Source: Actinomycetes bacterium (GTDB taxonomy: Bacteria; Actinomycetota; Actinomycetes; JACCUZ01). From it: a stretch of DNA of 64,000 nucleotides. A model generated the notes under the pieces. The model was not told the origin of the DNA. It did no database searches and was given only the letters and a program-made list of their open reading frames with translations. Of the stretch, positions 1,101 through 1,330 are shown in pieces; within the stretch, counting starts at the first letter, position 1; each line of letters begins with the position of its first letter. The position numbers and the translations under genes are program-made. Where the stretch lies: assembly GCA_035489715.1 (NCBI GenBank), contig DATHAP010000021.1, forward strand, positions 694 to 64,693, written 5' to 3'.

Positions 1101-1209
1101 CCTGCCGTGCCCGGTTCGTCGGTGCCAGCCCTTTGCCGCGTCCCACCATCCGGACGCGGATCCGCCGCAAGGACCACCTGGCAGCGCCGGGCGGCGTACG
1201 CTCAGACCC

Positions 1210-1260
1210 GTGCGGCAGAGCCTGCTCCTTCTCGGCTGCCGCGGCGAGGCACTCGTCTAG
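1210..1260 (+). promoter_or_regulatory. Putative leuA leader peptide ([16 protein letters not shown]) and attenuator region
   Basis: 16-codon ORF starting with GTG and containing four consecutive Leu codons (CTG CTC CTT CTC). It lies about 70 nt upstream of leuA. GC-rich inverted repeats (GGCGAGG...CCTCGCC) lie between it and the leuA start. Confidence 0.45.
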
Positions 1261-1330
1261 AGGCCGGTCACCCTCGCCGCGGAGTGCTCGCCTGTTCCGG
1301 TCGCCTCCCAGCGAGACGAGAGTGACCCTT

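Follow-up and report, generated by a model that had tools for sequence, protein, structure and literature searches.

What governs leuA, the gene for 2-isopropylmalate synthase, in a 64,000-nucleotide (nt) stretch of DNA from an Actinomycetes bacterium (contig DATHAP010000021.1; the whole stretch is called the window here)? The gene is preceded by a 230-nt segment with a mini open reading frame (ORF) containing four consecutive leucine codons, in which an original prediction, made from the sequence alone, saw the leader of a classic amino-acid attenuator. Comparison with related genomes indicates that this segment is almost certainly a copy of the actinobacterial leuA leader described in 2005 by Seliverstov et al. 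as the 'LEU element' (PMC1262725) and called leuL1 in Streptomyces. The Leu leader ORF is conserved upstream of leuA, and ribosome-mediated leucine sensing, as had been proposed, is the most likely function of the leader. The classic attenuator layout was not recovered. The overall explanation that we regard as fairly probable is that the window carries a LEU element controlling leuA through a ribosome stalled on the Leu codons, which would unmask the Shine-Dalgarno (SD) region of the gene.

The GTG at 1210-1212 opens a frame of 16 sense codons, in which the start is followed by CGG CAG AGC CTG CTC CTT CTC GGC TGC CGC GGC GAG GCA CTC GTC TAG; the stop at 1258-1260 leaves 70 nt (1261-1330) before the leuA ATG at 1331. 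The sequence thus agrees with the original prediction on the ORF, its four Leu codons and its distance from the gene. The downstream gene was also correctly named, its product scoring 874 bits against the NCBIfam profile TIGR00970 (cut-off 697.4) and 908.6 bits against NF002991. The element (1197-1330) lies directly upstream of leuA on the same strand, and its coding parts and promoter-like box are as follows.

1197-1202, plus strand: -10-like hexamer TACGCT (TANNNT), 7 nt upstream of GTG1210 (sequence, family pattern).
1210-1260, plus strand: leader upstream ORF (uORF), leuL-like, from GTG to TAG (sequence, family homologues, covariance model).
1222-1233, plus strand: run of four Leu codons, CUG CUC CUU CUC, as putative regulatory codons and anti-SD-like strand (sequence).
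1331-3082, plus strand: leuA, 2-isopropylmalate synthase, 583 amino acids, the putative regulated gene (NCBIfam profiles).

A chance origin of the Leu-run mini-ORF is unlikely because runs of at least four Leu codons are rare in the window (about 0.009 expected per 230 nt, for three frames of one strand) and because the mini-ORF recurs upstream of leuA in relatives. A LeuA protein scan with one genome per species yielded 80 loci with 69-84% identity, two of them without upstream sequence; the comparative set consists of 78 sequences, namely 77 loci and the window. The families sampled include Nocardioidaceae, Streptosporangiales, Pseudonocardiales, Micromonosporaceae, Micrococcales, Geodermatophilaceae, Nanopelagicales and uncultured lineages. 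All 78 informative leuA sequences carry the element. The conservation expected by the original prediction was found in 77 of the 78, which have a short ORF with at least three consecutive Leu codons upstream of leuA (three Leu in 62, four in 16), followed after the run by x-[C/R]-R-x-x-x and a stop (77/78). In the 78th sequence, locus L004, the ORF is also present, but an insertion interrupts its Leu run, MTRSLVLLSPVEGLLRCRSEA. When the 77 relatives, without the window, were used to build a covariance model (R1), it matched the window at 1213-1318 on the plus strand with 54.7 bits (E 1.3e-10); no other site in the 64 kb exceeds 12.8 bits, the palindromic reverse of this hairpin excepted. Most genomes carry the leader without annotation, which bears out the remark that such leaders often escape annotation in actinobacteria. 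The exceptional locus (L004:1838-1903) is from Nocardioides sp. Soil805 and, despite the insertion, retains the hairpin described below as P1 and the downstream sequence.

The likeness to the LEU element covers its placement immediately before leuA, a Leu-run uORF, a hairpin with a pseudoknot, a -10-like box suited to a leaderless start and the absence of an intrinsic terminator; a base stem between the Leu codons and the SD region of leuA is also present, but weakly supported. The window peptide resembles both the Streptomyces lividans peptide annotated as LeuL1, MRFGLLLLSCRGEGL, which is reported as leaderless and without terminator (PMC8079986), and the leu leader of Corynebacterium diphtheriae, MNRANLLLLRRGGSQA (PMC5784534); its C-terminal pattern LLLL-x-C-R-G-E has its counterpart in the S. 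lividans peptide. No essential difference was found. The window copy is set apart by an unusually weak SD (GAGACGAGAG instead of AGGAG), by four Leu codons where three are commonest and by its GTG start. The element family is already described, and the window copy is an unannotated new instance of it.

The position and frame of the uORF are informative about its expression. In the ORF list its frame extends back to 721, into the antisense of the divergent gene; the length of 16 codons depends on GTG1210 being the start, which is supported by frame statistics and by the conservation of the promoter-like hexamer. In 67 of 78 loci an in-frame ATG or GTG has TANNNT (background frequency 0.0015 per position) at 6-9 nt on its 5' side, and this start stands 2-12 codons ahead of the Leu run. 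Promoter-proximal ATG/GTG codons share the frame of the Leu run in 67 loci, lie in frame +1 in four and in frame +2 in none. A sigma-70 consensus scan is uninformative for actinobacterial promoters. A hexamer placed just before the uORF start implies a leaderless or near-leaderless uORF; the uORF of the window is probably of this type, with a transcription start deduced from the sequence, and its S. lividans homologue LeuL1 is reported from RNA-seq to be transcribed leaderless (PMC8079986). At the other end, a stop codon lies within the loop of P1 in the uORF frame in 73 loci, and in the other two frames in only 1 and 2 loci. This conservation of frame for both start and stop codons supports translation of the uORF as such, and in Mycobacterium abscessus the uORF upstream of leuA is ribosome-protected in ribosome profiling (PMC4974804).

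Variants of the uORF were also observed. In five loci of Micromonosporaceae type (L039, L055, L070, L071 and L075) it passes the P1 loop without a stop and continues across the P1 3' arm to end 18-19 codons past the first Leu, as in MWHGLLLRCRDEAPFQAGTSSRS (upstream of position 2001); a terminating ribosome would there sit on the P1 3' arm, a variant geometry of the same element. Loci L057 and L059 (about 1845-1890) have leader ORFs with two Leu-rich stretches, MFRSEITLLALLLGALLLRCRGEAN, and these uORFs may not be leaderless, since TANNNT is absent at the usual distance.

Codon choice in the Leu run differs from that of the adjacent genes. In the family, 42.8% of the run codons are CUU, as against 5.8% of those for Leu in the neighbouring leuA genes, and the run ends with CUU in 72 of 78 loci; the leuA of the window has none among 43 Leu codons. 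The choice is shifted toward the rare codons CUC and CUU, which are anti-SD-like, and Leu identity is retained where lineages of low guanine plus cytosine (GC) content switch codons to CUA or UUA.

The end of the uORF is embedded in a conserved RNA structure with the following parts.

1239-1249, plus strand: P1 5' arm, CCGCGGCGAGG, inside the uORF coding region, starting 5 nt after the Leu run (inverted repeat).
1272-1282, plus strand: P1 3' arm, CCTCGCCGCGG; the uORF stop UAG at 1258-1260 is in the P1 loop (inverted repeat).
1262-1267, plus strand: putative pseudoknot 5' strand GGCCGG, in the P1 loop (complementarity, family tests).
1297-1302, plus strand: putative pseudoknot 3' strand CCGGUC, 15 nt after P1 (complementarity, family tests).

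P1 is a perfect inverted repeat of 11 base pairs (bp) in the window (11/11, 100% complementary). Its core is the repeat GGCGAGG...CCTCGCC singled out by the original prediction, which is therefore real, with the uORF stop in its loop, but does not form part of a terminator/antiterminator pair. Across the family 99.1% of the P1 cells are paired, and five of the 11 pairs show changes on both sides, with GC/AU at two positions and AU/GC at a third. These swaps are non-synonymous (Gly/Ser/Asp, Glu/Gly) and the pairing is nevertheless retained, indicating that downstream of the Leu run selection acts on the RNA and not on the peptide. The spacing between Leu run and P1 is 5 nt in 76 of 78 loci.

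The pseudoknot would join the P1 loop to a strand located about 11-16 nt after P1 in most loci. Anchored by sequence motif alone, the two strands have 82.2% of their cells paired, a value reached by none of 500 shuffles; the second pair covaries (GC 27, AU 17, GU 11; Fisher p = 0.0017). In an alignment-free test, cognate pairing between loop and downstream strand beats non-cognate pairing in all 10000 permutations, and lineage variants stay complementary (GUCCGG/CCGGAC, AUCCGGC/GCUGGAU, UCAGCCG/CGGCUGA and GCCGUC/GACGGC). These two approaches supersede a count on the raw MAFFT alignment (39.9% of cells paired), because the loop was there aligned out of register. Support for the predicted pseudoknot is moderate, given its palindromic CCGG core and a signal that consists in large part of conservation rather than covariation. 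In a clade of Arthrobacter/Paenarthrobacter (L060, L064, L069 and L078) the P1 loop has grown to about 28 nt, and the complementarity of its extra segment (GAAAGCU...) to AGCUUUC, located beyond the pseudoknot 3' strand, hints at a longer pseudoknot there.

Two strands of the leader can pair with the SD region of leuA.

1224-1238, plus strand: base stem 5' strand, made of Leu codons plus 5 nt, predicted to pair with the leuA SD region (RNAduplex).
1309-1323, plus strand: base stem 3' strand, the purine-rich leuA SD region CAGCGAGACGAGAGU, 8-22 nt before the ATG (RNAduplex).
1312-1327, plus strand: CGAGACGAGAGTGACC, the alternative partner of the P1 3' arm and loop (1266-1281; inverted repeat of 16 nt, 81% complementary).

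In the window the duplex of Leu tract and SD region has 13 bp with three interruptions and a predicted energy of -15.3 kcal/mol, and the stem is interrupted because the SD is so weak. The duplex of P1 3' arm and loop with the SD region reaches -17.5 kcal/mol; it excludes P1, also covers the SD and is the pairing adopted by the unconstrained fold of 1190-1345. The mutually exclusive inverted repeats of the original prediction thus exist, inasmuch as 1266-1281 can pair with either the P1 5' arm or 1312-1327, but they are not a terminator and an antiterminator. Among the relatives, the complementarity between Leu codons and SD reaches past the SD core in a lineage-specific manner, as in CUCCUGCUU/AAGCAGGAG, UGCUCCU/AGGAGCA and CUUCUUCGCUG/UAGCGAAGGAG, and in low-GC lineages CUACUU is complementary to AAGUAG. 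In permutation tests of cognate against non-cognate pairing, the cognate score was reached by 302 of 10000 permutations for the Leu tract and by 24 of 10000 for the P1 3' arm, and neither of two negative controls was significant. A third possible SD-sequestering partner is the segment 1299-1307 (GGUCGCCUC, most of the pseudoknot 3' strand), which can form a local hairpin with 1317-1327 of the SD region (GAGAGUGACC), present in the minimum free-energy fold of the free leader. A family-wide test of pairing between pseudoknot 3' strand and SD appeared significant and was discarded, the segments overlapping in loci with short leaders.

On balance we lean towards translational attenuation, in which a ribosome stalled on the Leu codons would unmask the ribosome-binding site of leuA; the stalling and the direction and level of control are what we infer from this anatomy. 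Transcription would start at or next to GTG1210 and the 16-codon uORF would be translated leaderless. With ample Leu-tRNA, the ribosome would cross the four Leu codons, melt the P1 5' arm and terminate at the UAG in the P1 loop, and the freed P1 3' arm (1266-1281) would be the first to occlude the SD region (about 1309-1327). After release of the ribosome, the Leu tract (1224-1238) would pair with the SD and close a compact domain with P1 and the pseudoknot, keeping leuA translation low. With scarce Leu-tRNA, the ribosome would stall with a Leu codon in its A site, covering the anti-SD Leu tract. With exactly 5 nt between the Leu run and P1, such a ribosome would stand at the foot of P1 and leave P1 and the pseudoknot folded; the P1 3' arm would be kept from the SD and leuA would be translated.

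Several observations weigh against this reading. A thermodynamic simulation of ribosome masking raised the unpaired probability of the SD only from 0.41 to 0.46, with opening in 38 of 70 loci (Wilcoxon p = 0.03), a weak effect, and in the window the SD did not open (0.37 free, 0.36 stalled). Family support for the base stem between Leu tract and SD is modest (p about 0.03-0.05; duplex-energy permutation p = 0.054), and RNAalifold on full leaders recovers P1 only, since the register of the other helix slides between lineages and no column-by-column test is possible. In the window itself this stem is imperfect, and the SD pairs weakly with the anti-SD (-3.4 kcal/mol). The part given to the pseudoknot is an assumption. 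Finally, leader-codon mutagenesis of leuA in Streptomyces coelicolor (Craster et al. 1999) was, as relayed in PMC1262725, 'not consistent with classical attenuation'.

Control by sequestration of the SD fits the anatomy better than transcription attenuation, the layout originally proposed, in which alternative terminator and antiterminator hairpins would form between leader ORF and leuA and determine read-through by RNA polymerase. The four consecutive Leu codons of the leader peptide and the GC-rich, partly mutually exclusive inverted repeats are what such an attenuator calls for, and leuA leaders of Corynebacterium have been described as 'possibly involved in transcription attenuation' (PMC3890552). 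No terminator-like hairpin with U-tract was found in 900-1500, by a scan that is blind to P1 because it cannot see hairpins with loops longer than 8 nt. The U content after P1 was for this reason counted directly, and the 12 nt that follow it in the window, AGTGCTCGCCTG, contain three T. Some low-GC relatives do have U-rich sequence in these 12 nt (L034, L044, L063, L079 and L030; for example UGUUUUUGCUUG in L034), and P1 might double as an intrinsic terminator in those lineages; however, U-richness after P1 tracks genome GC (r = -0.51) and may reflect composition only. If P1 were a terminator, it would also stay intact with a ribosome stalled 5 nt upstream, so that transcription would end under starvation, which is the wrong polarity. 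The stability of the single-sequence fold of 1190-1345 is not unusual (z = -1.3), a value that is uninformative in DNA of 72% GC. A search of 900-1500 for Rfam leader or riboswitch families returned only chance matches at E up to 10, with no match to Leu_leader, and a gathering-level scan of the whole window gave two tRNAs and no leader family; the element is not in Rfam 15. A missing terminator is likewise noted in published descriptions of the element family (PMC1262725, PMC8079986), the latter from the RNA-seq of LeuL1. Transcription attenuation is accordingly improbable in our judgement.

Seliverstov et al. themselves, with reference to Craster et al. 1999, doubted classical attenuation and preferred a protein-binding site (PMC1262725). 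In its general form this view holds that the SD is occluded by a structured RNA, made of pseudoknot and base stem, to which a protein or small ligand binds; the Leu codons would serve only as anti-SD strand and translation of the uORF would be incidental. In its favour are the compact, conserved domain closed by a basal stem and the conservation of the pseudoknot; pairing alone could account for the CUC/CUU enrichment, and the mutational data from S. coelicolor were, in the account given in PMC1262725, 'paradoxical'. We nonetheless consider it rather unlikely, since the frames of starts (67/4/0) and of loop stops (73/1/2) are hard to explain without translation; the -10-like box positioned for leaderless initiation, the Leu identity kept through CUA and UUA codons and the ribosome protection in M. 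abscessus (PMC4974804) also speak against it, and conserved unpaired nucleotides that could form a ligand pocket are few (also PMC1262725). A mixed scheme, in which the pseudoknot is a second sensor binding uncharged tRNA-Leu, leucine or a protein, seems to us a long shot; if true, the LEU element would unite leader-peptide attenuation with an SD clamp that is gated by a protein or acts like a riboswitch, which could explain the 'paradoxical' Streptomyces mutagenesis. Less probable again is that the uORF governs Rho-dependent termination or mRNA decay through polarity, with mRNA level as main output. Polarity does follow translational repression in the mycobacterial Cys system (bioRxiv 10.1101/834739), Rho and translated uORFs are reported to shape premature termination in Mycobacterium tuberculosis, and the leader is C-rich downstream of P1; such effects would, however, be a consequence of SD unmasking by stalled ribosomes rather than an alternative to it. 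That the uORF is a functionless chance frame in the antisense shadow of GC-rich DNA could be argued from its opening at 721, its overlap with the divergent gene and the ordinary stability of the fold, but this idea can practically be dismissed: it is refuted by the 78/78 conservation, the compensatory base changes, the conservation of frame and the 54.7-bit model match.

Stalling with SD unmasking, the reading we retain, has parallels among known systems. Among them are the polycysteine leaderless short ORFs (sORFs) of mycobacteria (Canestrari et al. 2020; bioRxiv 10.1101/834739), which are also leaderless and first on the transcript, lack a terminator and carry a regulatory codon tract that pairs with the SD of the downstream gene; in Mycobacterium smegmatis, mutagenesis shows that stalled ribosomes relieve the pairing of Cys tract and SD. 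Unlike the leuA leader, they sense Cys, control other genes, bear no sequence relationship to the LEU element and are without a conserved module of hairpin and pseudoknot with the stop in the loop. Classical attenuators (leu, trp and his of Escherichia coli; Rfam Leu_leader RF00512; the M. tuberculosis ilvB1 leader, PMC13236596) share a leader peptide with consecutive codons for the end product, and in them too the position of the ribosome chooses between alternative RNA pairings, whereas the window has neither terminator hairpin with U-tract nor Rfam match. In the translational attenuation of ermC and cat, a ribosome stalled in the leader ORF opens a structure that hides the downstream SD; there, stalling is caused by antibiotic and nascent peptide, whereas in the window the cause would be a shortage of charged tRNA.

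As regards the surroundings, the segment 1101-1330 separates leuA from a divergently transcribed, acetyltransferase-like ORF (24-1100, minus strand) with a sub-threshold match to the mycothiol synthase MshD (E 9e-4; 18.6 bits, cut-off 163). Just inside its 5' end, four tandem copies of a 9-nt unit (CCGGCCGYC/CCGGCCGCC) at 1042-1077 encode an Ala/Gly-rich stretch of this minus-strand ORF. Its annotated start, GTG1100, may be too far upstream, in which case the leuA promoter region would exceed 230 nt. The only Rfam gathering-level matches in the 64 kb are the adjacent genes for tRNA-Asn(GUU) and tRNA-Met(CAU), at 41825-41988 on the plus strand.

As the element is already known, its presence here is an ordinary finding for the specialist. 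In this genome, leuA gains a small ORF that had escaped annotation and a cis-regulatory RNA, with the prediction that leucine biosynthesis is controlled at translation initiation. For the family, described in 2005, the comparative data favour ribosome stalling with SD unmasking, rather than classical attenuation or protein binding alone, because of the conserved frame of start and stop codons, the fixed 5-nt spacing, the two alternative strands able to sequester the SD and the CUC/CUU bias.

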